From assembly GCA_963692945.1 (NCBI GenBank), contig OY843585.1, positions 1,110,001 through 1,142,000 on the forward strand: a DNA stretch of 32,000 nt, read 5' to 3'. The notes under the pieces were generated by a model. The model was given only the letters and a program-made list of their open reading frames with translations, ran no database searches and was not told the origin of the DNA. Position 1 is the first letter of the stretch, and each line of letters opens with the position of its first letter. Below, in pieces: positions 1,029 through 31,945 of this stretch. This stretch comes from Bdellovibrionales bacterium (GTDB lineage Bacteria > Bdellovibrionota > Bdellovibrionia > Bdellovibrionales > UBA1609). Both the position numbers and the translations under genes were made by a program.

Positions 1029-3077
1029 TTCAGGGAGTAAGCCATAAGCCTCCATTTCCATAGAAAAACTAGCTCTACCCTGACTCAAAGATCTTAAATC
1101 CGTTGCATAACCAAACATATTCATTAAAGGCACTTGAGCAAAAATAAGAGTCCTATCTTTTTGTTTTTCCATACCAGCTATTTGCCCTCTACGAGTGTTT
1201 AAATCACTAATGATAGGACCTGTAAACTCTTCAGGACTGGAGATTTCTAATTTAAAAATAGGTTCTAAAAGATCACTCCCAACCTCCATCAACCCTTTAC
1301 GAAAGACTTGATAAGTTACCGATTGAAGAGCTAAAACACTTAACTCGTCTTCTTTATAATCTATTTTTTTTAAACAAACTTCTAAATCTCTTAAAGGATA
1401 TCCCATAAAAGGACCAGAAGACATTCCTTGTTCTAAACCTGTCTCAACTGCTTTTGTAAACTCTGGATTTAAATTTTTTAAAACACCACTATCCTTTTTA
1501 AAAAGATATCCCTTATTTTTTTCTAAAGGCTTTAAACTTAATGTCATTTTTGCATAGTGTTTAGCACCCTGTATTTCTTTAGAAAATTCAAAAGAACCTT
1601 CCCAAGAGGAAGACGGAGTCTCTCTAAAAGAAACTTGTGGTTTTCCAATACGAGCTTCAACTTTATAATCTTTTAAAAGTCTATCCACTAAAATTTCTAA
1701 ATGGAGTTCTCCCATTCCCATAAGTAAAGTTTGACCTGTTTCTAAATCTTTTTGAACCTGACAAGAAGGGTCTTCTCTTTGAATCTTTTGAAGTGCTTCT
1801 TCAATTTTACTTTGATCCACAGAGGTTTTTGCTTCAATAGCTACAGAAATAACAGGTTCAGGAAATTTCACTTTTTCTAAAATAACACTCTTATCTTTTG
1901 CACAAAGAGTGTCCCCAGTTTGAGTCCATTTCAAACCAGCAATAACTCCAATATCTCCTGAATAAATTTCTTTAACTTCTTTTCTAGAATTGGCATGCAC
2001 TTTTAATATTTTTTGAATCCTTTCCGTCTTTTCTTGATGAGTGTTATAAACTTGAGAACCTGCTTTCAAACAACCTGAATAAACACGAACATAAGTTAAA
2101 GTTCCAGAAAAAGAATCAAAAGCAATTTTAAAAGCCAAAGCAACTAAAGATTCTTTATCATCTGTTTTACAAATAATGTCCTTACCTTTAGAGTTTTTTC
2201 CCACAGCATCTGGTATCTCTAAAGGAGAAGGAAGGTAATTTTTAACAGCATCTAATACAAGCTGAATGCCTTTATTTTTAAAAGCCGAACCACACAACAC
2301 AGGAGTTATTTTTAAATCTAAGGTTTGTTTTCTTATAGCTTGTTTTATATCTTCTGAATTTATTTCTACATTTTCTAAATATTTTTCCATCAACTGTTCA
2401 TCGGATTCACAAATTTTTTCTACAAGATGCTCTCTTTGATTTTGGATAATGCTTTTATACTCTAAAGGCACTTCTGTAACAGAAAATTTTTTTCCTAATT
2501 CATCTTGATCCCAAAAATAAGCTTTTTGTTCAATCACATCTATGACACCTTTAAACTGATCTTCCGATCCAATAGGCCACTGTATAGGTAAAGCAGTGAG
2601 GCTGAGTTTTTTTTGAATAGATTCCAAACTCTTTTCAAAGTTAGCACCCACACGATCCATTTTATTTAAAAAACAAATACGAGGAACCTTGTATCTATCC
2701 GCTTGTCTCCATACTGTTTCAGATTGAGGCTCCACTCCATGAACAGAATCAAAAACAGCAATGGCTCCATCTAAAACTCTTAAAGACCTTTCAACCTCTA
2801 TCGTAAAATCAACATGCCCAGGAGTATCAACCAAATTGATAATAATATCTTTCCAAAAACAAGTTGTATTGGCTGAAGTGATTGTGATTCCTCTTTCTTG
2901 TTCTTGTTCCATCCAATCCATAACAGCTGTGCCTTCATGAACCTCCCCCATTTTACGACTTAATCCTGTGTAAAATAATATTCTCTCACTCAATGTGGTT
3001 TTACCCGCATCAATATGTGCCATAATTCCTATATTTCTAATTTTAGATTTATCTTTGAGACTTATACCAGAAGACAT
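1002..3077 (-). CDS. fusA: Translation elongation factor G
   Basis: 691 aa with GTPase motifs AHIDAGKTT (G1), DTPGHVDF (G3) and NKMD (G4). Sits directly after rpsL-rpsG, as in the str operon. Confidence 0.95.
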
Positions 3078-3127
3078 AAAGAACCTTTTTTTTATCTTCT
3101 TTATTTTAAAATATTATAAAGAAAAAA

Positions 3128-4062: not shown

Positions 4063-7000
4063 TTAAGCTCTTGTATTTTGTGTGTTATCATCCTTTTTAG
4101 AATTGACACTGTCTAAAGAAGTTGATCCTCCAAAAAGTTGCACATTATCCTCTTCCTCTTCATCTTCATAAGCTAAAGGATATTGATGATAACCAGCATA
4201 ACCCGTTCCTGAAGGTATTAAACGACCCATAATAACATTTTCCTTTAATCCAACTAAATAATCGTTTTTAGATTGAACAGAAGCCTCAGTAAGTATTCTA
4301 GTTGTCTCTTGAAAGGAAGCCGCTGAAATCCAACTTTTTGTATTTAAAGATGTTTTTGTAATACCTAAAAGAAGAGGTTTAAAAACAGCCAACCGACCCC
4401 CTTCTCTAATGATCTTATTGTGTACATCCTCTAATTCACCTTTATCAACTTGCTCTCCGACAATATACGGAGTGTCTCCTGATTCTAAAATCTCTACTTT
4501 TCCTAACATCTGACGGACTATCAACTCAATGTGTTTATCGTTAATAGAAACCCCTTGCAGTCGGTAAACCTCTTGAACTTCATCAACAAGATAAGAGGCT
4601 AAAGCCTGATCTCCAGAAACATTTAAAATATCATGTGGATCACTAGGACCATCCATAAGAGATTCTCCCTTTTGAATGTACTCTCCCTCTCTAACAGCAA
4701 TGTATTTTCCTTTAGGAATCAAATACTCTTTTTGCTCTCCCTCTTTAGAAGTTACAATCACTCTTTGCTTACCTTTTAAATCTTTTCCAAAATTGATATA
4801 GCCATCAATTTCAGAAATAATAGAAGATTCTTTTGGTCTTCTCGCTTCAAAAAGTTCAGCCACACGAGGTAGTCCCCCTGTGATATCTTTTGTTTTTGTA
4901 CTTTCTTTATAAACTTTAGCAAGAGTATCCCCAGCATGTATCTCATCACCATCAGAAACCATTAACTGAGCTCCAATAGAAACAGAGTAAGCCACAGGAA
5001 CATCTCTTTCTGGAAAATTAATTGTATTCCCTTTAGAATCCACTATAGCAATCATAGCTTTTTGGTCTCCTGCTTTAGAATCTGTAAGAACTTTTGTTGT
5101 AAATCCTGTCACGGAATCAACTTGCTCAATGTAGTTCACGTCCTCTTCTATACCTTTAAATTTTACAAATCCAGAAGCATCAGAAACAATAGTGTTAGAG
5201 TAAGGATCCCATTCTGCAATGACATCTTCTTTTTTAACAGTATCGCCTTCTTTAACATTTAAAATAGCACCATAAACCAATTTAAAACTTTCTCTTTCCC
5301 GACCCGTGCTATCAAGGATAACAATATCACCACCTCTGTTCATTACTGTTAACTTTCCTTCTCTATTTTGAACAACATTTACATTTACAAATTTTATTTT
5401 TCCAGAGTAGTGAGCAACATGGACGGACTGTTCAACAGAACGAGATGCTGTTCCTCCTAAATGGAAAGTTCTCATCGTCAACTGAGTTCCAGGTTCTCCA
5501 ATAGATTGAGCTGCAATAATTCCAACCGCTTCACCAATATCTACTGTTCGGCCACGAGATAAATCCCGACCATAACATTTAACACAAATACCTTTCTTAG
5601 ACTGACAAGTTAGAGAAGATCTAATTTTTACTTTTGGAATAGCGAGGTTATCTATTTTTTTGACCATTTCTTCATCAATTTCTTCCCCAGCTTCACAAAT
5701 GATTTCATTAGAATTAAGATCTACAACTTCTTCATAAGCTGTTCTACCTAAAACTCTCTCCCCAAGAGCTTCAATCACTCCCCCACTTTCTATAAGAGGT
5801 TGCATCTCCATGTGTTTGTCCGTCCCACAATCTTGTTCAGTAACAATAACATCTTGAGAAACATCTACTAATTTACGAGTTAAATAACCTGAGTTGGCTG
5901 TTTTTAAAGCCGTATCAGCTAAACCTTTACGAGCTCCATGGGTAGAAATAAAATATTGTAAAACGGTTAATCCTTCTCTGAAATTCGCTGTAATAGGAGT
6001 TTCAATAATTTCTCCAGAAGGTTTTGCCATCAAACCACGCATACCAGCTAACTGACGAATTTGAGCTGTTGAGCTTCTTGCTCCTGAATCAGCCATAATA
6101 AAAATAGGATTAAAACTAGCCGCTTCAATTTTTTGATCATCAACAATAAAGGTTTCTTTTTCTAAATACTCCATCATTTCATCAGCCACTTTATCTGCAC
6201 AGTGAGTCCAAATATCAACAACTTTATTGTATCTTTCACCATCTGTAATTAAACCCTCATCATACTGTAAACGAATTTCATCAACTTCAGCACGAGATTC
6301 TTTTAGAAGTTCTTCTTTACGAGAAGGAATTTGTAAATCATTGATACTAATAGAGATACCTGCTTTTGTAGAATATTTAAATCCAGCGTTCATCAATTTA
6401 TCCGCTAAAACAACTGTCTTTTTTCCTCCACATAGACGAAAAGTTTTATCAATTAACTCGGCTAGAGAATTTTTATTCATCACACGATTGTAAAATGAAA
6501 ATGGAACTTCTTCAGGGACAATAGAACTTAAAAGAACTCGGCCAACAGAAGTTTTTTCTCTTTTTCCGAAAACACGACAAGTGATTTCTGCTTGAAGATC
6601 AACAGCACCTGATTCGTAAGCATAAATAACTTCTGGAATACTTCCAAAAGACTTTCCTGTTCCTTGAGCTCCAGGACGGATACGAGTCATCCAATACATT
6701 CCTAAAACAATATCTTGTGTAGGATTGATAACAGGTTGACCACTTGCAGGACTCAATATGTTATTTGTGGACATAATCAATGTTCTTGCTTCCGTTTGAG
6801 CCTCTATAGACAAAGGAACATGAACAGCCATCTGATCTCCATCAAAATCAGCATTGAAAGCTGTGCAAACAAGAGGATGCAACTGAATCGCTTTTCCTTC
6901 ATGTAAAACAGGTTCAAAAGCTTGAATACCTAATCTATGCAATGTAGGTGCTCTATTTAATAAGACAGGATGTTCTTTTACAATTTCAGAAAGAATATCC

Positions 7001-8229: not shown

Positions 8230-11200
8230 TTAAGTCTCCTCACTTTTTTCAACATCAACAGTTTCTGTCAACACATCTGATTCAAACATTTCAACATTAA
8301 GTCCTAAACTTTTCATTTCATTAATAAGTACATTGAAAGATTCAGGAATACCAGGTTCAAGGACATTTTCCCCTCTCACAATACTTTCATACATACGAAC
8401 ACGACCAGCGACATCATCCGATTTTACAGTTAGAAATTCTTGAAGACAATAAGCCGCTCCATAAGCTTCAATAGCCCAAACCTCCATCTCTCCAAGTCTT
8501 TGTCCACCAAATTGTGATTTACCACCAAGAGGTTGTTGCGAAACCAAAGAGTAAGGACCAATAGATCGAGCATGAATTTTTTCCTCAACAAGATGATGAA
8601 GTTTCAACATATACATAACCCCTATAGTCACAGGCATTTCAAAAGGCTCTCCACTTCTTCCATCAAATAAAACCGTTTGTCCTGTTTCTGGTAACTTAGC
8701 ATGTTTTAAAAAGTTTTTAACATCTTCTTCCTTAGCTCCATCAAAAACAGGTGTGGCAACATGAATTCCATCTTCTGCTTTTTTAATTAAAGTCTTAAGA
8801 GATTGTTCATCTGCTGTATCTATAATTTGTTCAATATCTTTATCAAAAAAGTAAGATTCTTTTAAAGATTGTCTCGCTTCACTTTCTTTAAAATCATCAA
8901 GATATTTTTGTAATTGCTGTCCCAAACTGTAAGCCGCCCAACCTAAATGAATCTCTAAAATTTGTCCTATATTCATACGAGAAGGAACACCTAAAGGATT
9001 AAGAACCATATCAACAGGTGTGCCATCGGCCATATAAGGCATATCTTCTTCTGGAAGAATTTTAGAAATAACTCCCTTATTACCATGACGACCAGCAAAT
9101 TTATCACCCACTTGAACTTTTCTTTTAACAGCCACATACACTTTTATCATCTTCACAACACCAGGCAGTAATTCATCTCCTGAAGACAATCGTTCCACCC
9201 TTTCTTGATAAACGGATTCCAATTTATCTAATCTAGAACGAGCTTCATCAACAATTTCTGTAATATGTTTTGAAGTTTTTTCATTAGACAAAGGGATATA
9301 AGCTAGAAGATCAAAAGGTATCATCTTGAGATCTTCATCTTGTATTTTTTGATTTTTATTTAAAAGCTCTTCTGAACCATCATCACTTAAAAGAATATCC
9401 GAAGTTTTTTGTCCAACCAATAATTCTTTGATTTCATCTAAAGTGTTGCTTTTAATAGCATTCTTTTGAATTTCAACATCTTTTTTTAATTTCTCTTCTT
9501 TTTCTGAAATGATTTTTTTAAGACGATCACTTTTTTCAACACCTTCTCTTGTATAAATTTGAGTGTCAATCACTGTCCCTGATACACCAGAAGGAACTCT
9601 TAAAGAAGTGTCTTTCACTTCACCTGCTTTCTCTCCAAAAATAGCAAGAACCAATTTTTTTTCAGGAGACAATTGATTTTCTGCTTTAGGAGTCACTTTA
9701 CCCACAAGAATATCTCCTGTAGAAACTTCAGCCCCTATGCGAACAATTCCTGAACTGTCTAAATTGTTAAGAGATTCTTCTCCTACATTAGGAATATCAT
9801 CCGAAATTTCTTCACGACCTAACTTTGTATCTCTTGCTAAACATTCAAATTCTTCAATATGAATGGAAGTGTAAACATCTTTTTTTATAAGTTTTTCAGA
9901 TATTAAAATAGAATCCTCAAAATTATATCCTGCCCAAGGTGTGAAAGCGACAACAATATTTCGACCTAAAGCCAATTCTCCCATATCCATAGAAAGACCA
10001 TCTGCGATGACATCACCATGTTGAATTTTATCACCTATTTTCACAATGGGTTTCTGATTAAAACAAGTGTTTTGATTTGTCCGTTGATATTTAATTAAAT
10101 CATAAATATCTAAACTGTCTGCCAACTTTCCTTTTTTACTTAAACGACGAATAACAATACGAGAAGCATCCAAACTTTCTACAACACCATCATGCTTACA
10201 AACCACACTGTTTCCAGAATCTCTAGCAACTAATTTTTCAATACCTGTTCCTATAAGAGGAGCTTGTGAAGTAACAAGGGGAACAGCTTGTCTTTGCATA
10301 TTAGATCCCATCAAGGCTCTATTGGCATCATCATGTTCTAAGAAAGGTATTAAAGAAGCTGCAATAGAAACCAATTGTCCTGGAGAAACATCCATCAAAG
10401 TGGCTTGATTTTTTTTGACTGTCTTATACTCTCCACTCACTCGGGCTGTTAAAAAACTGTCCTTTTTTATTTTACCAAATTCAGAACGAGATTGTAATAT
10501 GGAATGAGACTCTTCTTCTAAAGCGGAATAATATCTTATATTATTAGTAACATCTCCATTTTTTAATTCACAATAAGGTGTTTCAATAAATCCATATTGA
10601 TTCACACGCGCAAAAGTAGCTAAAGAAGCAATCAAACCAATGTTAGGTCCTTCTGGAGTTTCAATAGGACAGATTCGCCCATAATGTGTAGGGTGAACAT
10701 CTCGCACTTCAAATCCAGCACGTTCTCTTGTTAAACCACCAGGCCCAAAAGCAGATAATCTTCTTTTATGTGTGATTTCTGCTAAAGGATTGGTTTGATC
10801 CATAAATTGAGACAATTGACTGGAACCAAAAAACTCTTTCACAACAGCACTCACTGATTTAGCGTTGATTAAATCATGAGGCATCATCGTATCTGTATCT
10901 TGAAGACTCATTCTTTCTCGTATAACTCTTTCCATACGAACCAAACCAATACGATATTGATTTTCTAAAAGTTCCCCCACAGAACGAACCCTTCTATTTC
11001 CTAAATGATCAATGTCATCCACTTGACCTCTACCATTTTTTAAATCCACTAAATGTTGAACCACTCTCAAAATATCTCTTTTTGTTAACACGGTCATATC
11101 TTTAGGAATATCTGTAAAATTAAATCTATGATTGATTTTTACACGACCAACTTCCCCTAAATTATAAGTGATAGGTTCAAAAAATAAATTTTTCAAATAA

Positions 11201-14132: not shown

Positions 14133-14567
14133 TCAAACAACCTCTAAACCCATACTTTTAGCAGAACCACAAACTTGAGATTTAGCTGCTTCTAAATCCA
14201 AGCAATTAAGATCAGGAAGTTTTACTTTTGCAATCTGTTCCACTTGAGCTTCTGTGATTTTTCCAACTTTCTCTTTTTGTGGCATTTTTGATCCACTCTT
14301 CAAACTCATGGCTTTTTTCAAAAGTACAGAAACAGGGGGGGTCTTCGTGATAAAACTAAAAGAACGATCCTGATAAACAGTAATGATCACAGGGATAGTG
14401 GTATTGCCTTCTTTTTGAGTTTTAGCATTGAACTGCTTACAAAAATCCATAATATTAACACCATGTTGACCAAGAGCAGGCCCAACAGGTGGTGCTGGAT
14501 TGGCTTTCCCAGCTGGAATTTGTAGCTTGATATATCCTGTGATTTTCTTCAATGATTTTTTTGCCAT
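14133..14567 (-). CDS. rplK: 50S ribosomal protein L11
   Basis: 144 aa containing [22 protein letters not shown]. Confidence 0.96.
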
Positions 14568-15836: not shown

Positions 15837-17096
15837 ATGTTAACAATTAAGATTGATCATAACTACAAAAACCAGTCTGTCGGATTTTTGAACTGGTCTA
15901 AAGAAAAACACAATGAACAAATAGAGGTTAAAAACTTTTTAAGCATTGGACGAGAAGCAAAAAATCTTTTGACCTTAGATGATAGCTGTATTTCTCGCCA
16001 TCATGCCAGAATTGAAAAAAAAGAAGACTCAGGTTTCTTTATTTTAAAAGATATGAATAGTCGCAACGGGGTCTTTTTAAATGGAAACCGTATTTATCAG
16101 GCTGTCCTCAGTCATAATGATAAGATTCAAATAGGAAATGTCTCATTTACTTTTTCTTATGAAAAATACAACCCTAGATGGCTATTCAACTCCAGAAGTT
16201 TCAATGAAAAATGGAATCAACAATTAAGCCGCATCCCCCACCTTGCTCAAACAGATTGTCCTATTTTAATTCTAGGTCCTTCTGGAACAGGAAAAGAAAT
16301 CGTAGCTCAAATGATTCATAAAAACTCCCATAGAAACAAAGCCCCCCTTGTAAGTGTTAATTGCAGTGCCTTGACAGAAAGTCTTGTGGAAAGTGAACTT
16401 TTTGGACATACAAAAGGAAGTTACACAGGAGCTATTAAAGATCGTAAAGGAGCTTTTATAGCTGCAACAAATGGAACTTTATTTCTAGATGAAATAGGAG
16501 ATCTTCCTTTAAATCTTCAACCTAAATTTCTTCGTGCCATTGAATATCAAGAAATCAAACCTGTAGGATCTGATAATAATTTAAAAACAAATGTTAGAGT
16601 TATTTCTGCCACTCATCAAGATTTAAAAAGTAAATCTGAAGAAAAAGAATTTAGAGAAGACCTCTATTATCGTTTAAATGTTGTCTCTATTTCTATCCCT
16701 GCTCTAAAAGATAGAATGGAAGATTTTGAACCCTTACTTCATAACTTCACTTTAAAAGAAGGAGTTGTATTCTCCACAAAAGCCATTGATATTTTAAAAA
16801 GTTATTCTTGGCCAGGAAACATTCGTGAATTAAAAAACACAGTGTCTCGTGCTAAGGCTCTTTTTAGAAATGAAGTCATAGATGAAGAAAAAACATCTTT
16901 TATTTTACATCAAGGAGAAAAAGAACAAAACACAGCTATAACTTTAAAAAAGTTAGAAAAAAAAGCAATCATCACTTCTTTAAAAAGATTTAAAGGCAAT
17001 CAAAGCAAAGCAGCTCTCACTTTAGATATTCCTAGAAGCACGCTTTATGATCGTATTCAAGAACATGGTATCAATGTGAAAGAATTTAAATTGTAG
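15837..17096 (+). CDS. Sigma-54-dependent transcriptional activator with N-terminal FHA domain
   Basis: 419 aa with an FHA signature (LSIGREAKN...SRHHARIE...NSRNGVFLNGNRI), AAA+ Walker A GPSGTGKE, Walker B LFLDEIGD, a sigma-54 contact loop variant GSYTGA, and a C-terminal Fis-type HTH (NQSKAALTLDIPRSTLYDRI). AAGGAGG lies 5 nt before the ATG. Confidence 0.92.
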   Translation: MLTIKIDHNYKNQSVGFLNWSKEKHNEQIEVKNFLSIGREAKNLLTLDDSCISRHHARIEKKEDSGFFILKDMNSRNGVFLNGNRIYQAVLSHNDKIQIGNVSFTFSYEKYNPRWLFNSRSFNEKWNQQLSRIPHLAQTDCPILILGPSGTGKEIVAQMIHKNSHRNKAPLVSVNCSALTESLVESELFGHTKGSYTGAIKDRKGAFIAATNGTLFLDEIGDLPLNLQPKFLRAIEYQEIKPVGSDNNLKTNVRVISATHQDLKSKSEEKEFREDLYYRLNVVSISIPALKDRMEDFEPLLHNFTLKEGVVFSTKAIDILKSYSWPGNIRELKNTVSRAKALFRNEVIDEEKTSFILHQGEKEQNTAITLKKLEKKAIITSLKRFKGNQSKAALTLDIPRSTLYDRIQEHGINVKEFKL

Positions 17097-17174: not shown

Positions 17175-17576
17175 TTATAGACTTTGTTTTAAAAGCTGTT
17201 CTATTTTTGCTAGCCTTATTTTCATTTTTTTGCAGTATTTTTCAACTGCAAATAAACCTTTTCTAGCATGTGCCGTACTACCTGGAAAACGTTTGTCATT
17301 GGCGACTTTTATACTATGTTTCCAGAGACGTTTTCCTCTAATGCATCTTTCATTACTTACTGTTTTAAGATTTTTCAAATTTTGTTGCATCATCTGTATG
17401 TGAGTTCCCAATTTTTGCACTTGAGAGTTAAAAGTGATCACTAACTTTTCTCCTTCTATATCTGGTCCATGTAAACCAATACCTACACCTACATTACCTT
17501 CTGGTATTCTTCTGCTATTATTTTTAGCAAATGCAATACCACTTAAAAATGGTATTAAAATAATAAATAGTTTCAT
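17175..17576 (-). CDS. Small secreted hypothetical protein
   Basis: 133 aa with signal peptide MKLFIILIPFLSGIAFA and a basic helical C-terminus. A strong SD (AAAGGAGGAAGT) lies directly upstream of the ATG. No family recognised. Confidence 0.7.
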   Translation of the reverse strand: MKLFIILIPFLSGIAFAKNNSRRIPEGNVGVGIGLHGPDIEGEKLVITFNSQVQKLGTHIQMMQQNLKNLKTVSNERCIRGKRLWKHSIKVANDKRFPGSTAHARKGLFAVEKYCKKMKIRLAKIEQLLKQSL

Positions 17577-17618
17577 AACTTCCTCCTTTTTGTTTAGTTA
17601 TTATCATAGAAATACAAT

Positions 17619-17627
17619 GGGGGGGGG
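17619..17627. repeat. G9 (C9 on the minus strand) homopolymer tract
   Basis: aatgggggggggtaga, 43-51 nt upstream of the ATG at 17576. The same 16-mer context occurs at 30777-30792. Confidence 0.9.
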
Positions 17628-17693
17628 TAGAGTCAAACTTAAACAAAATTAAGTTGTATTTTTTTATTTAAATTTAGATATAAGTCCAGAAAG

Positions 17694-17751
17694 TTTTTTT
17701 CACTAAATCACTAGCAAAACACTGCAAAGGAGCATTGATAGCCGCTTTAAG
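17694..17751 (-). pseudogene. polA 3'-region fragment (remnant)
   Basis: By my hand alignment, 52 of 57 aligned nt are identical to polA 23222-23293, apart from one 15-nt in-frame gap. It translates to LKAAINAPLQCFASDLVKK, against polA LKAAIERAAINAPLQGSASDLVKK. No ORF surrounds it. Confidence 0.75.
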
Positions 17752-17819: not shown

Positions 17820-19211
17820 TCAATATCTTCCTTTTTTATTTTTTTTAATAATCTCCAGAAAGTTTTTTTTATTTTTGGATACAATGGATTCCATTTCTTT
17901 TTTATTCCAAATATGATTGTAAGCTTTTTTATAAGAGTTCATTTTATCTTTGATTTCAAAATCATCTGAAATTACATTTATATTTACTGAATAACTTAAT
18001 TTATTAAATTCCATTTCAAATAATAAAGTCAGATCAAAATCTTCTTCACTTGGTTTATAATTTTTATACATAACTTTTAAAATTATTTTTTTATTTATAT
18101 AATCTTCAGAAAAAGTTTCTGTATTTACAAAATCTTCAAAAGAAGAGAAAATTTGTTGTATCTCATTTGGTGGAACTTCTGTTAAAATAGGATGCCCTTC
18201 TTCTATATATAACTTTATTTTTTTAGAACAAAAAACCGTATCAAAAGTGTCAAATTTCCTATAAAGAATATTAAAAAAAGGTTTAAAAAAATTATCAAAT
18301 AAAACTTCTTTTGTATTGATATCCAGTAAAGTAATGTTTTCTTGTTCCTCTCGTATAAATTCCTCAGCTTCTTTATCCACGTCTTCAGGCTCACTTATAT
18401 CTTCACCTTTTGCAGCTTTAATACCTATTTCTAGCCATTGAATTAAAACTTGACCTATATATATAGCCAAAGCATCTACACTTCCCGTATCAGTCTTGTT
18501 TAAAGCAATAAGATAGTTTTCTCTATCACTGCTTTTAATTATTAAGGGTGGGTAGCCAAGTTTTAACAATATATAATTTAATAAAACTCTAGCAATTCTA
18601 CCATTCCCATCATCAAATGGATGAATTAAAAGAAACTCATGATGTGATTTCGCTAGAAAAGAAGAAATTGAAAGAGTTTTTTGTTCAAGCTCTTTGTTAA
18701 CCCACTTCATCAATTCTTCCATTTTTGCAGGCACTTCTTCAGGTTCGGCAAATTTAAATATTTCTCCTGTACTGGTTTTTACATGATTAGGCTGACTTTT
18801 ATATTTGCCAGGAATAATTTCTTTTTGAACTTCTATTCCATCTGATGTTTGAGCTTTTTTAAAAAATGGTTCTTTTAAAATAATCTTATTAAAATCTCTA
18901 ATATCAGCCTCTGTTAATGGGTAAGTTTCAGTTTTAGCCAATTCTTGAATTTTTTTTATAACCACATCATGAGATTTCATCTCATTGTAATTTCTTTCTA
19001 AATGACCTCCTTCCATCCTTCCAAAAATAAGAAGAAGCTCTGTTTCTCCATAAGTTAAAGTATTACCTTCTATTTTATTTGAATGGTAATTCCAATCTAA
19101 CCTGATTTTTTTATCCAATATCTCTTGATATTCTGATTTTAAAGGCTGAAATTCTTTCCACTTTTTAAACAAATCTTCAATTTTCTTATTTATTTCTTTT
19201 AATTCTTTCAT
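17820..19211 (-). CDS. Fic family protein (AMPylase-type, class II with N-terminal inhibitory motif) plus uncharacterised C-terminal domain
   Basis: 463 aa with the canonical Fic motif HPFDDGNGRIAR (aa 197-208) and the inhibitory-helix motif S-x-x-x-E-G as SNKIEG (aa 44-49). About 190 C-terminal residues have no recognisable motif. Confidence 0.9.
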   Translation of the reverse strand: MKELKEINKKIEDLFKKWKEFQPLKSEYQEILDKKIRLDWNYHSNKIEGNTLTYGETELLLIFGRMEGGHLERNYNEMKSHDVVIKKIQELAKTETYPLTEADIRDFNKIILKEPFFKKAQTSDGIEVQKEIIPGKYKSQPNHVKTSTGEIFKFAEPEEVPAKMEELMKWVNKELEQKTLSISSFLAKSHHEFLLIHPFDDGNGRIARVLLNYILLKLGYPPLIIKSSDRENYLIALNKTDTGSVDALAIYIGQVLIQWLEIGIKAAKGEDISEPEDVDKEAEEFIREEQENITLLDINTKEVLFDNFFKPFFNILYRKFDTFDTVFCSKKIKLYIEEGHPILTEVPPNEIQQIFSSFEDFVNTETFSEDYINKKIILKVMYKNYKPSEEDFDLTLLFEMEFNKLSYSVNINVISDDFEIKDKMNSYKKAYNHIWNKKEMESIVSKNKKNFLEIIKKNKKGRY

Positions 19212-19333: not shown

Positions 19334-19394
19334 TTCTTCTCCTTGTTGCGATGAAAAGCTCGTGAAAATAAAAATTCACACACTAGAGTTTTGT
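19334..19394. repeat. Partial copy of the MITE-like element (one end)
   Basis: ctcgtgaaaataaaa...ctagagttttgt matches the reverse complement of the left end of the 22853-23024 element. The terminal CTAGAGTTTTGT (19383-19394) abuts the stop codon of the HEAT-like gene. Confidence 0.6.
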
Positions 19395-21691
19395 TATTGA
19401 AATAAAAAATATTTTTTATGGGTTTTATGTGAAAGATTACGCACTTCAATATTCGTATCTTTCATACCCTGTTCTAAAAGCAAAAGAGCTTCTTCTTTCA
19501 TATCCGCTTCTATCAATTCATACATTTGATGTATAACAAACTCACGGACAACTGTATTTTCATCTTTCATACCTTGTTTCAAGAAGAAAAAAGCCTCTTC
19601 TCTCATATCTGCGTTTATCAATTCATACGTTTTCTTAATAACAGCATACCGTACGTACCGATTTTTATCTTGCAGACCTTGTTTCAATAAGAAAAAAACC
19701 TCTCCCTTCATATCTGCACTTATCAATTCATAAGTTTGATATATAACGGCCTGACGTACATCTTTACTCTCATCTTCCAGACCTTGTTTCAATAAGAAGA
19801 AAACCTCTTCCCTCATATCTGCGTTTATCAATTCATAGGTTTGATACATAATGAGTTGACGAACACCCTCATCCTCATCTTGCAGACCTTGTTTTAATAA
19901 GAAAAAAACCTCTTCTTTCATATCTGCGTTTATCAATTCATCCATTTGATATATAACAGCATGACGTACAACTCTATTCTTATCTTGAAGACCTTGTTTT
20001 AATAATGAAAAAAAATCCTCTTTCATTCCCACTTTTATCAATTCATACACTTTCTGAATAACAGTCTGACGTACATAGACATTCTCATCTTGCAGACCTT
20101 GTTTTAAAAACGAAAGAGCCTCTTCTTTCATTCCCATTTTTATCAATCCATACGTTTGATATATAACGGCCTGACGTACATCTTTACTCTCATCTTCCAG
20201 ACCTTGTTTTAAAAACGAAAGAGCCTCTTCTTTCATTCCCATTTTTATCAATCCATACGTTTGATACATAACGGCCTGACGTATATCTTCATCCTCATCT
20301 TGCAGACTTTGTTTTAATAAGAAAAAAACCTCTTCTTTCATATCTGCGTTTATCAATTCATCGGCTTGATATATAACTTCTAAATTCACACTTTTATTCT
20401 CATCTTGCAGACCTTGTTTTAAAAAGGAAAAAGCCTCTTCTTTCATTCCTACTTTTATCAATTTACCCATCTGATACATAACAGCCTGACGTACATCTTC
20501 ACTCTCATCTTCCAGACCTTGTTTTAATAATGAAAGAGTTTCTTCTTTCATTCCTACTTTTATCAATTCATCGGCTTGATATATAACAACCTGACGTACA
20601 CCTTCATCCTCATCTTTCAAACCTTGTTTTAATAAGAAAAAAGATTCTTCTTTCATTCCCATTTTTATCAATTCAGATACTTTCTTAATAACAACCTGAC
20701 GAATATTTTCATTCTCATCTTTCAGACCTTGTTTTAAAAAGGAAAAAATCTTTTCTCTCGTTCCTGCTTCTATCAATCTATCCATCTGATATATAACAGC
20801 CTCACGTACACCCTCGTCCTTATCTTTCATTCCTTGTTCTAAAAACGAAAGAGCTTCTTCTTCCATTCCTACTTTTATCAATTCAGATGTTTTCTTAATA
20901 ACAGCCTGACGAATACTTTCATCCTCATCTTTCAGACCTTGTTTTAATAAGAAAAAAGATTCTTCTTTCATTCCTACTTCTATCAATTTATCCATTCTCT
21001 TAATAACAGCCTGACGTACATTTTTATTTTTATCTTTTAGACCTTGTTCTAAAAACGAAAGAGCCTCTTCTTTCATGTCTGCTTCTATCAATTTATCCGT
21101 TTGATACATAACAGCCTGACGTACATTTTTATTTTTATCTTTTAGACCTTGTTCTAAAAATAAAAGAGCTTCTTCTTTCATTCCTACTTCTATCAATTTA
21201 TCCGTTTGATGTATAACAGCTTGACGAACATCCTCGTCCTTATCTTTCATTCCTTGTTCTAAAAACGAAAAAGATTCTTCTTTCATGTCTGCTTCTATCA
21301 ATTCATCCGTTTGATACATAACAGCCTGACGTACCCCCTCGTCCTTATCTTTCATTCCTTGTTCTAAAAACGAAAAAGATTCTTCTTTCATGTCTGCTTC
21401 TATCAACTCATCCGTTTGATACATAACAGCCTGACGTACATATACATTCTCATCTTTCATTCCTTGTTTTAAAAGTGAAAGAGCTTTTTCTTTCCTATTT
21501 GTTTTTATCAATTCATCCGTTTTTTTAACAATAGCTAAATGTATATCTTCATGCTCGCTTTTCACACCTTGATTTAAATGAGGGTTTGTAGCATAAGATT
21601 CTACAGCATAAATTAAAAAACTTATAAGACAGGAGTAAGAAAGAATGAAACAAACTTTCAAAATAAAACTTTTAAAACCACTTAAAATCAT
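19394..21691 (-). CDS. Secreted or membrane-anchored protein of ~20 tandem 35-aa HEAT-like (PBS-lyase-type) repeats
   Basis: 765 aa with a hydrophobic N-terminus (FILKVCFILSYSCLISFLIYAVESYA). It then carries 20 units of consensus VRQAVMYQTDELIEADMKEEaFsFLkQGLKDedeg. The L-KD-D--VR-A signature is that of HEAT-like repeats. Confidence 0.85.
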   Translation of the reverse strand: MILSGFKSFILKVCFILSYSCLISFLIYAVESYATNPHLNQGVKSEHEDIHLAIVKKTDELIKTNRKEKALSLLKQGMKDENVYVRQAVMYQTDELIEADMKEESFSFLEQGMKDKDEGVRQAVMYQTDELIEADMKEESFSFLEQGMKDKDEDVRQAVIHQTDKLIEVGMKEEALLFLEQGLKDKNKNVRQAVMYQTDKLIEADMKEEALSFLEQGLKDKNKNVRQAVIKRMDKLIEVGMKEESFFLLKQGLKDEDESIRQAVIKKTSELIKVGMEEEALSFLEQGMKDKDEGVREAVIYQMDRLIEAGTREKIFSFLKQGLKDENENIRQVVIKKVSELIKMGMKEESFFLLKQGLKDEDEGVRQVVIYQADELIKVGMKEETLSLLKQGLEDESEDVRQAVMYQMGKLIKVGMKEEAFSFLKQGLQDENKSVNLEVIYQADELINADMKEEVFFLLKQSLQDEDEDIRQAVMYQTYGLIKMGMKEEALSFLKQGLEDESKDVRQAVIYQTYGLIKMGMKEEALSFLKQGLQDENVYVRQTVIQKVYELIKVGMKEDFFSLLKQGLQDKNRVVRHAVIYQMDELINADMKEEVFFLLKQGLQDEDEGVRQLIMYQTYELINADMREEVFFLLKQGLEDESKDVRQAVIYQTYELISADMKGEVFFLLKQGLQDKNRYVRYAVIKKTYELINADMREEAFFFLKQGMKDENTVVREFVIHQMYELIEADMKEEALLLLEQGMKDTNIEVRNLSHKTHKKYFLFQ
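19397..21538. repeat. Intragenic 105-bp tandem repeat array (~20 units)
   Basis: Exact 105-nt period; for example, gcttctatca recurs at 21291 and 21396. Adjacent units such as 21241-21345 and 21346-21450 are nearly identical at the DNA level. Confidence 0.92.
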
Positions 21692-28015: not shown

Positions 28016-28239
28016 ACAAAACTCTAGAAATACCCCTCTGCGAAAACCAGAGTTGCGAAAACCAGTAGTTTTTCTCTATGTTAAAACTTTCATTTTCACG
28101 AGATTTGAAGAACAAAACCCCTCATGCGAAAACCAGTAGTTTTTCTCTAGGAATATCCCTCCTTGTTTTCTGAACTTGAAGAGCGTCCCTTTTACGATGA
28201 AAGGTCAGAAAACAAGGAGGGGAAGAACTAGAGTTTTGT
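28016..28239 (+). mobile_element. MITE-like non-autonomous element (224 bp)
   Basis: Perfect 12-bp terminal inverted repeats ACAAAACTCTAG (28016-28027) and CTAGAGTTTTGT (28228-28239). Both ends are flanked by AGA (28013-15 and 28240-42). The interior has small-hairpin modules at 28054-28078 and 28124-28149 and a 17-bp-stem hairpin (28157-28173 / 28205-28221). The right terminus supplies the last codons and the stop of the 881-aa ORF. Confidence 0.7.
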
Positions 28240-30873
28240 AGATAATCTTTCAAGACGATCCACTCTTTTGATAAGTGAGTTTAGATTCTCTTTAAGAGAT
28301 GTATTTTCTTTTTTCAAAGAAGTGAGTTCTCTTTCTAGTTTTTTATTTGTAGATGCTAATTTCTTTTCTGTTTGAAGTTGTGTCTGTTTTAGTTTTGTGA
28401 TTTCTTTTGTGGTGGCTTTTACATCATCTGAAGTTTGTTTAAGTTTAATTTTTGTTTCTTCAATTTGACTTTGGTTCGCTCCCAACTCTTTTTTAAAAGT
28501 TAAAAACTCTGTTTGAAAAGTCTCTTTTAAATCAGATAGTGATTTTGTAAGAGCCGATACAGACTCCTTAAGAAAGTTTAGAGTTTTTGTTGTGGAGTTA
28601 TAAAACTCTTTAAAAGCTTTTATGATAACAGGAATAAGCCCTTGATAGTTCAAACTTAAAGTCTTTTTTGGATCTGAACCTTCAGACACTAACTCGGGAT
28701 ATTCTTTTTGAACCTCTTGAGCAATTAAACCTATCTGTTTTGTTTGAACTCTATGTTTGTCTTTCCAGTAAAAAGTTTTTGGGTTTAATTTTAAAAGAGA
28801 ATGGGTTTGATTTTTTAAATCCTTAATCTTGGTTTTGAGTCTTCGGTCTGATGGTGATAATGGTGCTGCTGGACTACCAAAAGAAGCAGAAGCCCCAGAG
28901 GTATTCAAGGTGAAATAATCTGTACTAGATGATGGTGATGATTTTTTAACCCTTAAATTGCCCTCTACAATTAAATCCCTTCTAATAGTGACATCATAAG
29001 CACTTAACATACCATTATCAATAGTGACATCTCTATTAATACTAGAACTTATCCCATTACTAACAGTGAAACGACCTTGGCCATATCCATTATTTTGATT
29101 ACGACCACCAATACGGAGTTCTCGATCTACTATTAAAGTTCCTCCATCTGATCCTCCACCTGTGTAGTTAACATTCCCGACTCTTAAATTACTGTGATTA
29201 ATCAGAATTTCTTTATGATTTTTGTCCATATTTCCCATGATTATATTTCCAATATTGAGCCTCTTACCACCAGAGTTAGGCTGCAAATTATTACCTATTA
29301 CAATATTATTACTTGTATTGTAAGATTTACCTGCGTGATCGCCTATATAGATATTATTACTTCCAGTTGTATTTCCCCATGAGCTACCATGTGTTCCTGT
29401 CTGCGTGCCTATAAAAATATTACTACTTCCTGTGGTGTTTCGTTTACCAGATTCATAACCTATAAAAACATTTCTACCAGAAGAGTAATTAGATTTTGTT
29501 CCTGCTTGAAAACCTACAAAAGTATTTTTAGATCCCATAAAAGTCCCATCTCCATATCCGGCTCCATGACCTATATAAGTATTACCACCATGACCACTCT
29601 GTCCACCTCCTCCTGCGTATGCACCTACATAGGTGTTGTTATGTCTATTAAGTTCAAGTTTACCAGCTTCAAAACCTATAAAAACATTATTAGACCCTTG
29701 ACGTAATCTGTGTCCTGCTTGAGATCCGATGATAGTGTTTTTGTGGTTTCCTGTTCCTAATGATGAAAAAGCACTAACGGTAGCATAACCAATGTAAGTA
29801 TTATTTTCTCCCGTGGTGTTTGTACCTGCTTGATAACCCACAAAAGTATTATTTGAATCTGATATATTTGCACGACCCGCTTTATAACCCACAAAAGTAT
29901 TCCCTGCCCCTGAACCTGTTGTTGATTTCCCCGCTTCAAAACCAAAAGCCGTGTGATGATTTACACTTACCTCTGTTGTATCTCCACAACCCACAAGACT
30001 TAACTCGCTAGGAGATTCTGTCACTTTATAACAATCTGGATCTCCACTACCTCCGCCTCCACCAACAACTACATCACCACAAACATCTTTTGCATAAGTT
30101 AAAGGGGTTGTATCTGCTATGATTAACTCTACCACTTCTTCCACCTTTGTTTTTCTGGTTGCATGAGTAGTAGCTGGTAAAGCATCTATCTGTGTCTGTA
30201 TATTTGTAGGAAGACCAGACTTCCCATCTGCTTTATCAATAATTTCTTCATAAAACAGAGAACAGCATTGAGAATCTTTCACTGAAATCTTAAAATCCCA
30301 ATCTGTTGGAGGGTTTGTTGGAGTAGTTCCTGTTCCTTTTAAGTGAATGATTTTTGGTCTTTCACTTGCTGGCGTGGTGGTTGCACACTCTGGCAACTCT
30401 GGGTCTGTTGTTGCTGTGCAATCTCTAGATACAAATTCAAAACCTGAAGGTTTAGTTTTGATATTATCATTTAAAACTTTCAAACATTTTTTATTATCAT
30501 CTGTATTTGTTGAATCATCTTCATTTGCAAATTTATTTAAAAGAGATTGAATCTGAATCACCTTCCAAAGCTCCGTGTTAGAATCTTTTATTTTTTTTTG
30601 AGAAGTAGATTGTTGCATGATAGATGTCCCAACCCCTAAAATAACGATAGCCCCTATTGCCGATGCAATAACAACACTAACAAGAGCAGAACCTTTTTGA
30701 TTTAAATAAGAAAGCTTATTGTTTTTTAAAAGAAAGGAAAGCTTGTGAAAAAAAAGAAATTTACACTTTAAAAGTAAATGGGGGGGGGTAGAAAGGTTTT
30801 TTAGAAAATAAAAAAGCAAATTTTTAAAATAAAAAAAGAAACTTCTACCTCTAGATTTAAAGGATTTTTTCAT
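28228..30873 (-). CDS. Chimeric fibre protein: pilin/PilX_N-like N-terminal helix, Gly-rich tail-fibre repeats, peptidase S74 intramolecular chaperone domain, coiled-coil tail
   Basis: 881 aa. Residues 58-86 are NQKG/SALVSVVIASAIGAIVILGVGTSIM. Residues ~306-548 carry repeated NTFVGYxAG-type units. Residues 675-~765 are SDRRLKTKIKDL...IGLIAQEVQKEYPELV...LNYQGLIPVIIKAF, which is S74-like. Residues ~766-881 are heptad coiled coil. The start is uncertain, because the first 57 residues are low-complexity F/L/K-rich and there is no SD. Confidence 0.8.
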   Translation of the reverse strand: MKKSFKSRGRSFFFYFKNLLFYFLKNLSTPPHLLLKCKFLFFHKLSFLLKNNKLSYLNQKGSALVSVVIASAIGAIVILGVGTSIMQQSTSQKKIKDSNTELWKVIQIQSLLNKFANEDDSTNTDDNKKCLKVLNDNIKTKPSGFEFVSRDCTATTDPELPECATTTPASERPKIIHLKGTGTTPTNPPTDWDFKISVKDSQCCSLFYEEIIDKADGKSGLPTNIQTQIDALPATTHATRKTKVEEVVELIIADTTPLTYAKDVCGDVVVGGGGGSGDPDCYKVTESPSELSLVGCGDTTEVSVNHHTAFGFEAGKSTTGSGAGNTFVGYKAGRANISDSNNTFVGYQAGTNTTGENNTYIGYATVSAFSSLGTGNHKNTIIGSQAGHRLRQGSNNVFIGFEAGKLELNRHNNTYVGAYAGGGGQSGHGGNTYIGHGAGYGDGTFMGSKNTFVGFQAGTKSNYSSGRNVFIGYESGKRNTTGSSNIFIGTQTGTHGSSWGNTTGSNNIYIGDHAGKSYNTSNNIVIGNNLQPNSGGKRLNIGNIIMGNMDKNHKEILINHSNLRVGNVNYTGGGSDGGTLIVDRELRIGGRNQNNGYGQGRFTVSNGISSSINRDVTIDNGMLSAYDVTIRRDLIVEGNLRVKKSSPSSSTDYFTLNTSGASASFGSPAAPLSPSDRRLKTKIKDLKNQTHSLLKLNPKTFYWKDKHRVQTKQIGLIAQEVQKEYPELVSEGSDPKKTLSLNYQGLIPVIIKAFKEFYNSTTKTLNFLKESVSALTKSLSDLKETFQTEFLTFKKELGANQSQIEETKIKLKQTSDDVKATTKEITKLKQTQLQTEKKLASTNKKLERELTSLKKENTSLKENLNSLIKRVDRLERLSTKL
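30780..30788. repeat. G9 (C9 on the coding strand) homopolymer tract inside the 5' end of the fibre ORF
   Basis: aatgggggggggtaga encodes S-T-P-P-H (TCT ACC CCC CCC CAT) at codons 28-32 of the 881-aa ORF. Confidence 0.9.
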
Positions 30874-30879
30874 AGATAA

Positions 30880-30908
30880 ATTATGAAGAAGGTTTAAAAA
30901 AATATCAA
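30880..30908 (-). promoter_or_regulatory. Candidate sigma-70 promoter giving a leaderless fibre-gene mRNA
   Basis: On the minus strand: TTGATA (complement of 30903-30908), a 17-nt spacer, then CATAAT (complement of 30880-30885). The A of the ATG (30873) lies 7 nt after the -10 hexamer, and no SD is present. Confidence 0.3.
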
Positions 30909-30983: not shown

Positions 30984-31442
30984 TTAACTACAAACTTGAG
31001 CTGCACAGGTTCCTGTCATACTCGTTCCTTTTTTTGAATTATCTGTTAACTTTCCTGTGCTATCAATACAGAATTTTAAGGGTTCGGCCTGACTTGTAGA
31101 ACTGAAACCTAAGGTTGTGTAGTCACCACCAGTTCCTACCATGTATAAACACCATTTTGTAGAATCAGAAGCATTAAAAGAAAATGTGGGCTTAGCAAAT
31201 TTACTTTTATCTTCAAAAGTCATTCTCTCCCATGCTGTATCCACAGGATTTGAATGTTCAAAATTACGAGACATTTCATATTTTTGATAAAACTCTAGAA
31301 ACATATCCTTTACCATTCCTGACTTGGCACTGTTTTTTATATTGTTATAACTGACTATTGCGACACTAGAGAGAACCCCTAGGATTGAAACAACCACAAG
31401 CAACTCTATCAAACTAAAACCTTTTCTATTTTTTTCACACAT
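30984..31442 (-). CDS. Type IV pilin (prepilin-type N-terminal cleavage/methylation domain)
   Basis: The class III signal MCEKNRKG/FSLIELLVVVSILGVL has Phe+1 and Glu+5. C-terminal Cys residues are present (FCIDS...GTCAAQVCS). The track ORF begins 11 codons earlier (31475) and overlaps the upstream pilin. The ATG at 31442 gives a normal 8-aa leader. Confidence 0.88.
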   Translation of the reverse strand: MCEKNRKGFSLIELLVVVSILGVLSSVAIVSYNNIKNSAKSGMVKDMFLEFYQKYEMSRNFEHSNPVDTAWERMTFEDKSKFAKPTFSFNASDSTKWCLYMVGTGGDYTTLGFSSTSQAEPLKFCIDSTGKLTDNSKKGTSMTGTCAAQVCS

Positions 31443-31459
31443 AAAACACTTCCAAGCTT

Positions 31460-31945
31460 TTACTGACATCCACATGAAGAACTACTACAAGTCCCTTTGA
31501 TTGTAGGAGAGGTTTTTTCACTATTGTCCGTAAATTTATTTTCGGAATCCATACAAAAATTTATTGCCTCTTTAGTATTACCGTTATAACCAAATTTTTG
31601 ATACTCTTTGTGGGCATTAGTTCCAGTACCAGTGTTTGCAGTTAGGGCCTGACACCATTTTTTAGGATGAGCAGAACAATTTTTAACAATAGCAGATTTA
31701 GTAAAATATTTTTTATCGTTAGATCGGAGACTATCCCATGCTGTCTGCCAAGGATTTGTTTCTCCTAGATTTTGATCCACAAAGATAGATTGATGATAAG
31801 ATTTAAATAGCAGTTGAAGTGTATTTACCTTTCCGTCTCTCACATATTCTTGAAAGGAACTAATACTAAATGCCCCTAAGATTCCTATAATTACAACCAC
31901 TGTAAGTAGTTCTATTAAACTAAAACCTTTTATATCTTTATACAC
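31460..31945 (-). CDS. Type IV pilin (prepilin-type N-terminal cleavage/methylation domain)
   Basis: Leader MYKDIKG/FSLIELLTVVVIIGILG, with a GTG start directly after an in-frame TAA. It is a paralogue of the downstream pilin (shared NP..TAW, KWC, FC.DS..K.TDNS.K..GTC) and has a Cys-rich C-terminus GTCSSSSCGCQ. Confidence 0.88.
   Translation of the reverse strand: MYKDIKGFSLIELLTVVVIIGILGAFSISSFQEYVRDGKVNTLQLLFKSYHQSIFVDQNLGETNPWQTAWDSLRSNDKKYFTKSAIVKNCSAHPKKWCQALTANTGTGTNAHKEYQKFGYNGNTKEAINFCMDSENKFTDNSEKTSPTIKGTCSSSSCGCQ

Follow-up and report, generated by a model that had tools for sequence, protein, structure and literature searches.

A run of nine cytosines (C9) within the leader-coding region of an adhesin-like fibre gene is described here from a Bdellovibrionales bacterium, on a 32,000-nucleotide stretch of contig OY843585.1 (assembly GCA_963692945.1, positions 1,110,001 to 1,142,000 of the forward strand), referred to below as the window and numbered from its first base. 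The gene (28228–30873, minus strand) encodes 881 amino acids, and the run lies at 30780–30788 on the same strand, appearing as G9 on the plus strand. The best-supported reading, and one that we consider reasonably probable, is that the tract constitutes a slippage-prone repeat in the translated leader and a candidate translational ON/OFF switch of the fibre. In this proposal, transcription would start at or beside the ATG at 30873, from the promoter-like sequence TTGATA-17-CATAAT, and the ribosome would read 61 leader codons, including the T-P-P-H encoded by the tract, before entering the signal-anchor helix that begins KG/SALVSVV. Replication slippage by plus or minus one C would then lead to a stop at codons 34–37 and to no anchored fibre, and a further slip would restore both frame and fibre. 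With at least three paralogous fibre genes present, such a switch would vary the fibres displayed by each cell.

The tract occupies nucleotides 86–94 of the fibre open reading frame (ORF), where the codons TCT ACC CCC CCC CAT specify S28, T29, P30, P31 and H32, the proposed slippage site itself falling within T29-P30-P31-H32. On the plus strand the G9 stands in the context aaaagtaaatGGGGGGGGGtagaaagg. The GC content of the window is 32.4%, and G/C runs of at least seven nucleotides number three in total, among them a G7 at 14335–14341. Under a first-order Markov model approximately 0.03 G/C runs of nine or more are expected in the window, against two observed, an excess of about 70-fold, and the occurrence of C9 is far above chance. 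The tract is hence of the slip-prone type (G/C runs of about eight or more) and over-represented for the composition of the DNA that contains it. Direct reading of the sequence and this estimate confirm an earlier note on the same DNA, which had located the run in codons 28–32 and had called runs of nine G/C rare by chance.

The consequences of a change in tract length follow from the distribution of start codons. The in-frame starts among codons 1–100 are ATG1, TTG19 and ATG86, and a scan of all codons in the interval from the tract to the helix found no in-frame ATG, GTG or TTG. Non-canonical starts (ATT, ATA, ATC and CTG) between the tract and the helix were likewise ruled out, occurring solely inside the helix. 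The latter is a pilin-like hydrophobic segment, SALVSVVIASAIGAIVILGVGTSI (residues 62–85, 30619–30690, minus strand), located directly after a KG pair, and the next in-frame canonical start, Met86 (30616–30618, minus strand), lies beyond it, so that a product initiated there would be without the anchor. Since no canonical in-frame start exists from the tract to Met86, past the helix, an anchored product needs translation across C9. When tract lengths were simulated, C6, C9 and C12 gave the full-length product, whereas C7, C8, C10 and C11 led to stops at codons 34–37, in the case of C8 and C10 only 3–6 codons past the tract. The assembled copy, with C9, is in the ON frame and yields the full-length ORF. 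Three statements of the earlier note are thereby upheld, namely that no canonical start intervenes before Met86, that a single-base change abolishes the anchored product and that the gene is ON as assembled.

The ATG at 30871–30873 (minus strand; M1) is supported as the genuine start of the family, such that the tract would be translated. The N-terminus that it specifies, MKKSFKSR, is kept in homologues as MKKAYKSR, MKKTYKSR and MKLSMKR, and the related sequences L001 and L004 also keep the nucleotide pattern ATG AAA AAA nCC TnT AAA TCT AGA G. In L004 the gene caller reads the protein P0122 from the equivalent ATG, in frame, into the helix (MKKAYKSRESPLHLRNLF...SNKG/SALISVIV). A promoter-like site, TTGATA-17 nt-CATAAT (30880–30908, minus strand), is found with 6 nt from its end to the ATG, a geometry kept in L001 (TTGATA-17-TAGCAT-6-ATG) and L004 (TTGATA-16-TAACAT-6-ATG). 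The fibre mRNA is probably leaderless, as judged from this layout, which would account for the missing Shine-Dalgarno sequence ahead of the fibre ATG. The leader-coding region (30691–30873, minus strand) comprises 61 codons and ends in LNQKG; no more than 1.5% of shuffles keep this frame open over 61 codons, and 5–6 stops interrupt the other two frames. Relative to these elements, the tract lies within the translated ORF and past the start, the role of M1 being inferred from conservation, and indels that are not multiples of three truncate the product. It is located about 90 nt downstream of the promoter-like site (30908–30880) and not between a −35 and a −10 element. The contention of the earlier note that any anchor-bearing protein must be read through the tract accordingly stands on the conserved start, on the in-frame reading of P0122 and on the lack of a later start before the helix.

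Leaders with Gly or Pro runs are found in several pilin-type members of the family, and the DNA was compared for two of them, P0085 and P0022, which were selected for Gly/Pro runs in the called proteins. In L123 (P0085, 4x coverage) a G17 tract is present at 3082–3098, corresponding to ORF nucleotides 82–98 and to the codons C-G6-E, and in L124 (P0022, 5x coverage) a C10 tract is present at 3042–3051, ORF nucleotides 42–51, within Y-P-P-P-L. Each tract falls after the start and ahead of the pilin-like helix and is in frame in the assembly, and in both a one-base change breaks the frame. The genomes concerned have 37–38% GC, and L124 carries a GGAG Shine-Dalgarno sequence ahead of M1. A further homologue, P0145, whose N-terminal domain shares approximately 97% identity with that of P0085, keeps the Gly run; its called start differs, being placed immediately before the run, as expected for a differing tract length. 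P0085 and P0145, from another genome, display the same mosaic pattern as the paralogues of the window genome, and the leader of P0076 contains TPPPG. Taken together, C9, C10 and G17, with different flanks and in the same leader segment of homologues, argue for a selected mutable site rather than an accident. A repeat of another kind was seen in L002, where a tandem (CGTTACAT) repeat of about five units, followed by C7-AG-C6-GTTTGCAC-G6, occupies 8890–8980. It lies directly upstream of a gene at 8965–10008, itself preceding the fibre homologue P0061, and may be a repeat-based switch or a terminator hairpin.

With regards to the length of the tract, a second assembled sequence of the same strain was available. 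Across about 925 nt, the Logan contig L003 (run ERR14375725) shows no single-nucleotide polymorphisms relative to the window. Its first base is the first C of the tract; nine or more C are present in it, the flanking sequence being identical, and a break at this point is what a de Bruijn length bubble would produce. Within the leader, the A6 run at 30722–30727 (minus strand) is A7 in L003 (at about 62–68), which breaks the frame whatever the C count. The break and the A7/A6 difference could reflect real heterogeneity or sequencing noise, the latter because long-read assemblies err at homopolymers. A comparable difference separates L001 from L004, whose leaders are near-identical and carry (AG)5 (5280–5289) and (AG)4 (about 10022–10029), respectively. 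(AG)4 keeps the conserved ATG in frame, as in P0122, and (AG)5 breaks the frame; L001 is a contig of 2.75x coverage, and the difference may be either dinucleotide slippage or an error in that contig.

The fibre protein combines a pilin-like N-terminus with a Cys-containing N-terminal domain, Gly/Asn-rich repeats, a Peptidase_S74 intramolecular chaperone domain and a C-terminal coiled coil. The chaperone domain (residues 675–729, 28687–28851, minus strand) matches PF13884 with E = 7.9e-15, and its SDRRLK at residues 675–680 fits the pattern SDxxxK, which places the protein in the S74 family. SDxxxK is the catalytic motif of S74 fibres, as described for the Bdellovibrio MAT proteins (PMC10769870). 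A weak match in the PDB was obtained to a phage long tail fibre (6F45), and homologues number more than 3,000, the annotated ones being labelled tail-fibre-domain proteins or trimeric autotransporter adhesins. The 881-residue product is recorded in databases exactly as read in the window. At least three fibre paralogues (P0124, P0001 and P0002) are located on the same contig, which is 1,561,448 bp long, their N- and C-terminal parts being conserved and their central repeats divergent; P0002 has its own leader, starting with MKLSMKR. An AlphaFold2 model of the N-terminal 330 residues, built from a four-sequence alignment, reached a predicted local distance difference test (pLDDT) score of 41.9 and was unusable.

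The N-terminus of the fibre is probably a degenerate derivative of type IV pilin-like proteins, as deduced from its relatives, because homologues and both genes upstream carry PF07963 (N_methyl). The Pfam search returned no PF07963 match for the fibre N-terminus itself. In the N_methyl pattern, G at −1 is followed by F or M at +1, E at +5 and about 20 hydrophobic residues, whereas the fibre junction reads KG/S with Ser instead of Glu at +5, then a 24-residue hydrophobic stretch. The homologues P0005, P0082 and P0110 carry PF07963 at the equivalent position, and homologues show the pilin motifs KGFSLIE or KGFTLIG at the helix junction. Directly upstream of the fibre gene are two overlapping pilin-like genes (30984–31475 and 31460–31945, minus strand), both with N_methyl.

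A second C9 tract is present at 17619–17627 (minus strand; G9 on the plus strand, in the context aaatacaatGGGGGGGGGtagagtc). It is non-coding and stands 42 nt upstream of an ATG at 17576, which opens a gene for a protein of 133 amino acids (17175–17576, minus strand) with a signal-peptide-like N-terminus, MKLFIILIPFLSGIAFA, a strong Shine-Dalgarno sequence, GGAGG (17586–17582), and no Pfam family. Both tracts are embedded in the same 16-mer, TCTACCCCCCCCCATT, of which copy A spans 17616–17631 and is non-coding, and copy B spans 30777–30792 and lies within the leader-coding region, both on the minus strand. Dinucleotide-preserving shuffles contained two matches to the 16-mer in 0 of 100 cases, even when 3 mismatches were permitted. 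The identity of context pointed out in the earlier note is consequently sound; it lends no support to a translational mechanism, copy A being non-coding. By sequence, the products of both tract-linked genes of the window are exported, as is usual for genes under contingency control. Tract A is flanked by TTGACT (17636–17631) and TATGAT (17608–17603), with a spacer of 22 nt as against the usual 16–18 nt, and a promoter scan at tract A found none.

A scan of 185,579 species genomes returned at least 118 exact copies of the 16-mer from unrelated phyla. The G strand often reads TTGAnA, N3–5, AATG9, TAGAAT, some 20–80 nt upstream of lipoprotein or secreted-protein genes; among the 118 matches, 27% have TAGAAT as the completed hexamer and 14% have a −35 match of at least 5/6, compared with 3% of controls. 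Other copies sit in 5′ coding ends, in either orientation. The idea of a lineage-specific motif was rejected because copies occur across unrelated phyla and in all contexts, and in the main the 16-mer marks homopolymer contingency sites of the ordinary kind. An invertible promoter was also considered and rejected, the flanking inverted repeats being only AT-rich and of low complexity, as was a role in RNA structure, since folding around the two tracts was no better than in shuffles (z = +1.07 and −0.10). Within the Bdellovibrionales, the metagenome-assembled genome (MAG) CBDATD010000001.1 contains three copies of the form TTGnAA, A3–4, AATG9, TAGA(A/G)T (L018, 3877; L020, 7697; L024, 3634), which lie 34–82 nt upstream of lipoprotein or signal-peptide genes and resemble a G9-spacer promoter family. 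Loci of Babeliales, Rickettsiales, Patescibacteria and Sneathia contain similar sites. In the vicinity of tract A, an exact 16-nt direct repeat, TCCAGAAAGTTTTTTT, is found at 17685–17700, in the intergenic region, and at 17854–17869, in the 3′ end of a Fic-domain gene. The neighbours of tract A are genes for an FHA-domain sigma-54 activator (15837–17096, plus strand), the Fic-domain protein (17820–19211, minus strand) and a 765-residue HEAT-repeat protein (19394–21691, minus strand).

A number of observations weigh against a selected translational switch. Polymorphism in tract length is not directly observed, the material consisting of assembled sequences only, and the contigs of the relatives bear names (ctg..._4x_l, contig_2) that suggest assembly from long reads, which is error-prone at homopolymers of 9–17 nt. 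The in-frame state of P0085 and P0022 is not independent evidence, given that both were chosen by their Gly/Pro runs, and in L123 and L124 an in-frame TTG or ATG past the tract would give a short canonical leader, so that the tract could precede the true start. A leader of 61 residues is unusually long for a prepilin-like signal, and a purely translational mechanism leaves the identical, non-coding copy of the 16-mer without an explanation. Among homologues the picture is divided: tracts occur in L123 and L124, and the closest leaders (L001, L004 and P0002) have no C tract. A rival proposal regards the tract as incidental, the outcome of rapid evolution in a leader of low complexity, and subject to occasional slippage without being a selected switch, in a gene that is simply expressed or slowly decaying. 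The density of homopolymers of at least 6 nt is 27 per kb in the leader and 3.4 per kb elsewhere in the ORF, an eightfold enrichment, the leader is poorly conserved with many indels between homologues, and C9 belongs to an apparent insertion of about 18 nt, CCCCCCCCCATTTACTTT, missing from L001 and L004, the leader of P0002 having no Pro run. The A6/A7 and (AG)4/(AG)5 differences described above are further frame-affecting changes in leaders. This proposal is nevertheless unlikely, as DNA so rich in AT predicts A/T runs and not C9, C10 and G17, as two C9 runs in 32 kb exceed expectation some 70 times, and as distant members of the family again have long G/C tracts in this short segment.

An artefact of assembly could imitate the observed frame, if the true consensus were out of frame and the gene a silent or pseudogenised paralogue. 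The tract length of nine is assembly-derived, from a platform that is unspecified, and the exact count is uncertain; the relatives come from low-coverage assemblies with the long-read-style names mentioned, the A7 of L003 would break the leader at any C count, and the paralogue P0001 is called only from the equivalent of Met86, hence without leader and helix. Gross homopolymer error is unlikely, however, because the window's large conserved genes, namely rpoB, rpoC, polA, eno and fusA, are all intact although A/T runs of 8 are many, L003 independently shows its nine or more C with the same flanks, and an error would sooner break than preserve a frame of 881 codons; we therefore regard an artefact as very improbable. 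A quite different explanation places the function of the 16-mer at the DNA level, as a sigma-70-type antisense promoter with the G tract in its spacer and TAGAnn as its −10 element, or as a shared protein-binding site, phase variation then being transcriptional. It draws on the identical copy upstream of an unrelated gene, on the chance of shared flanks given two tracts (roughly 1e-4, a rough estimate), on the promoter-like arrangement of the G strand ahead of lipoprotein and secreted-protein genes elsewhere and on the plus strand of the window, with TTTAAA-16-TAGAAA at site B and ATAGAA-16-TAGAGT at site A. Each of these copies nonetheless is without one good hexamer, the promoter scan reports no promoter that uses the tract, and both face away from the adjacent genes, with no plus-strand gene downstream to express. 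The tracts of L123 and L124 are flanked by other sequences and lack a promoter consensus, the 16-mer occurs across genomes in every context and orientation, and neither the inverted repeats nor RNA folding gives a sign of such a role at either site. An antisense promoter at the window copies is possible but weak, and action at the DNA level as a whole seems a small chance beside the translational switch, which accommodates the coding position of the tract, the conserved start and the recurrence of G/C tracts in homologous leaders.

The closest precedent for a translational switch of this type is pilC of Neisseria gonorrhoeae and N. meningitidis. Its translational phase variation was reportedly described by Jonsson et al. 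in 1991. The frame of pilC1 and pilC2, which code for a pilus-associated adhesin, is shifted by a poly-G run of 9–15 in their 5′ coding region (PMC5320596). The fibre gene is similar in having a G/C homopolymer of at least nine in the 5′ coding region, ahead of the mature part, where a one-base change shifts the frame, and in belonging to a set of several paralogues that differ individually in tract status. It differs in the protein, PilC/PilY1 being a beta-propeller with a Sec signal peptide, whereas the window protein is tail-fibre-like with an S74 domain and a 61-residue pilin-like leader, and in that variation is known in Neisseria, whereas switching here is predicted from the sequence of an AT-rich, uncultured host. 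The parallel drawn in the earlier note applies to the type of mechanism and does not extend to sequence homology.

Poly-G/C contingency loci are well established in Campylobacter jejuni and Helicobacter. These organisms share with the present case a small AT-rich genome with G/C runs of at least 8, far above chance, at the 5′ ends or promoters of surface genes, although the comparison here rests on 32 kb, not on a genome-wide inventory of tracts. Similar tracts were also encountered among the Helicobacteraceae and Campylobacter matches of the 16-mer genome scan. The C-stretch of Bordetella fim represents another class, the promoter-spacer homopolymer switch. To this class also belong the poly-C of fetA and the poly-G of porA in Neisseria (PMC5320596). 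Only tract A resembles them, and in position, its C9 lying between the −35-like TTGACT and the −10-like TATGAT with a secreted-protein gene downstream; its 22-nt spacer is, at the current tract length, about 5 nt too long to be functional, and the fibre tract is situated about 90 nt past its promoter.

Among Bdellovibrionota proteins, the S74 subgroup of the Bdellovibrio bacteriovorus MAT fibres (PMC10769870) is likewise made up of chromosomal, multi-copy, tail-fibre-like surface proteins with an S74/SDxxxK end. It shares the mosaic construction, with conserved ends and a variable middle, seen for P0124 versus P0001 and for P0085 versus P0145. The MAT family is characterised by a conserved beta-rich N-terminal domain of about 130 residues after the signal peptide, whereas the window family begins with a pilin-like leader and helix and has an apparently different N-terminal domain; the comparison concerns the S74 end only. 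A text search of the MAT paper gave no mention of pilin and 24 matches to “phase”, which in the passages retrieved refer to microscopy, attack phase or crystallography. A literature search combining Bdellovibrio, phase variation and homopolymeric tracts returned nothing relevant.

The wider genomic setting offers few points of comparison. Sampling of the lineage is very thin, with only two members in each of the 90%-identity clusters for ribosomal proteins S12 and S7. A scan of genome contigs with the N-terminal domain of the fibre found no relatives, two scans of metagenome contigs with the DNA flanking the tract gave no match, and an Rfam search of the whole window gave no match, not even a tRNA. 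The remainder of the window contains a cluster of rpoBC, ribosomal-protein genes and fusA, as well as polA and eno.

A broader interpretation would regard G/C-tract switches, some sharing TCTA-C9-ATT, as situated at the 5′ ends of many surface-protein genes, with the fibre leaders recruited as disposable switch modules; this is a speculative extension and we hold it to be improbable. If it were true, the cell could shuffle its displayed fibres, and hence its host or prey specificities, and the identical flanks at two unrelated genes would indicate cassette copying or a sequence-specific factor, not chance. For the fibre switch itself the mechanism is textbook, and the gain is one of scope, not of principle. 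Host-adapted pathogens, among them Neisseria, Haemophilus, Campylobacter and Helicobacter, provide the best-known cases of homopolymer phase variation. If the proposed switch is real, homopolymer-driven phase variation would reach a lineage with almost no sequenced relatives and would include a new class of surface protein, namely adhesins that resemble phage tail fibres and combine a pilin-type N-terminus with an S74 chaperone domain. The choice of exposed fibre, among at least three paralogues, would then vary from one cell to the next, which would bear on the specificity of attachment and on the annotation of “frameshifted” fibre genes in MAGs.

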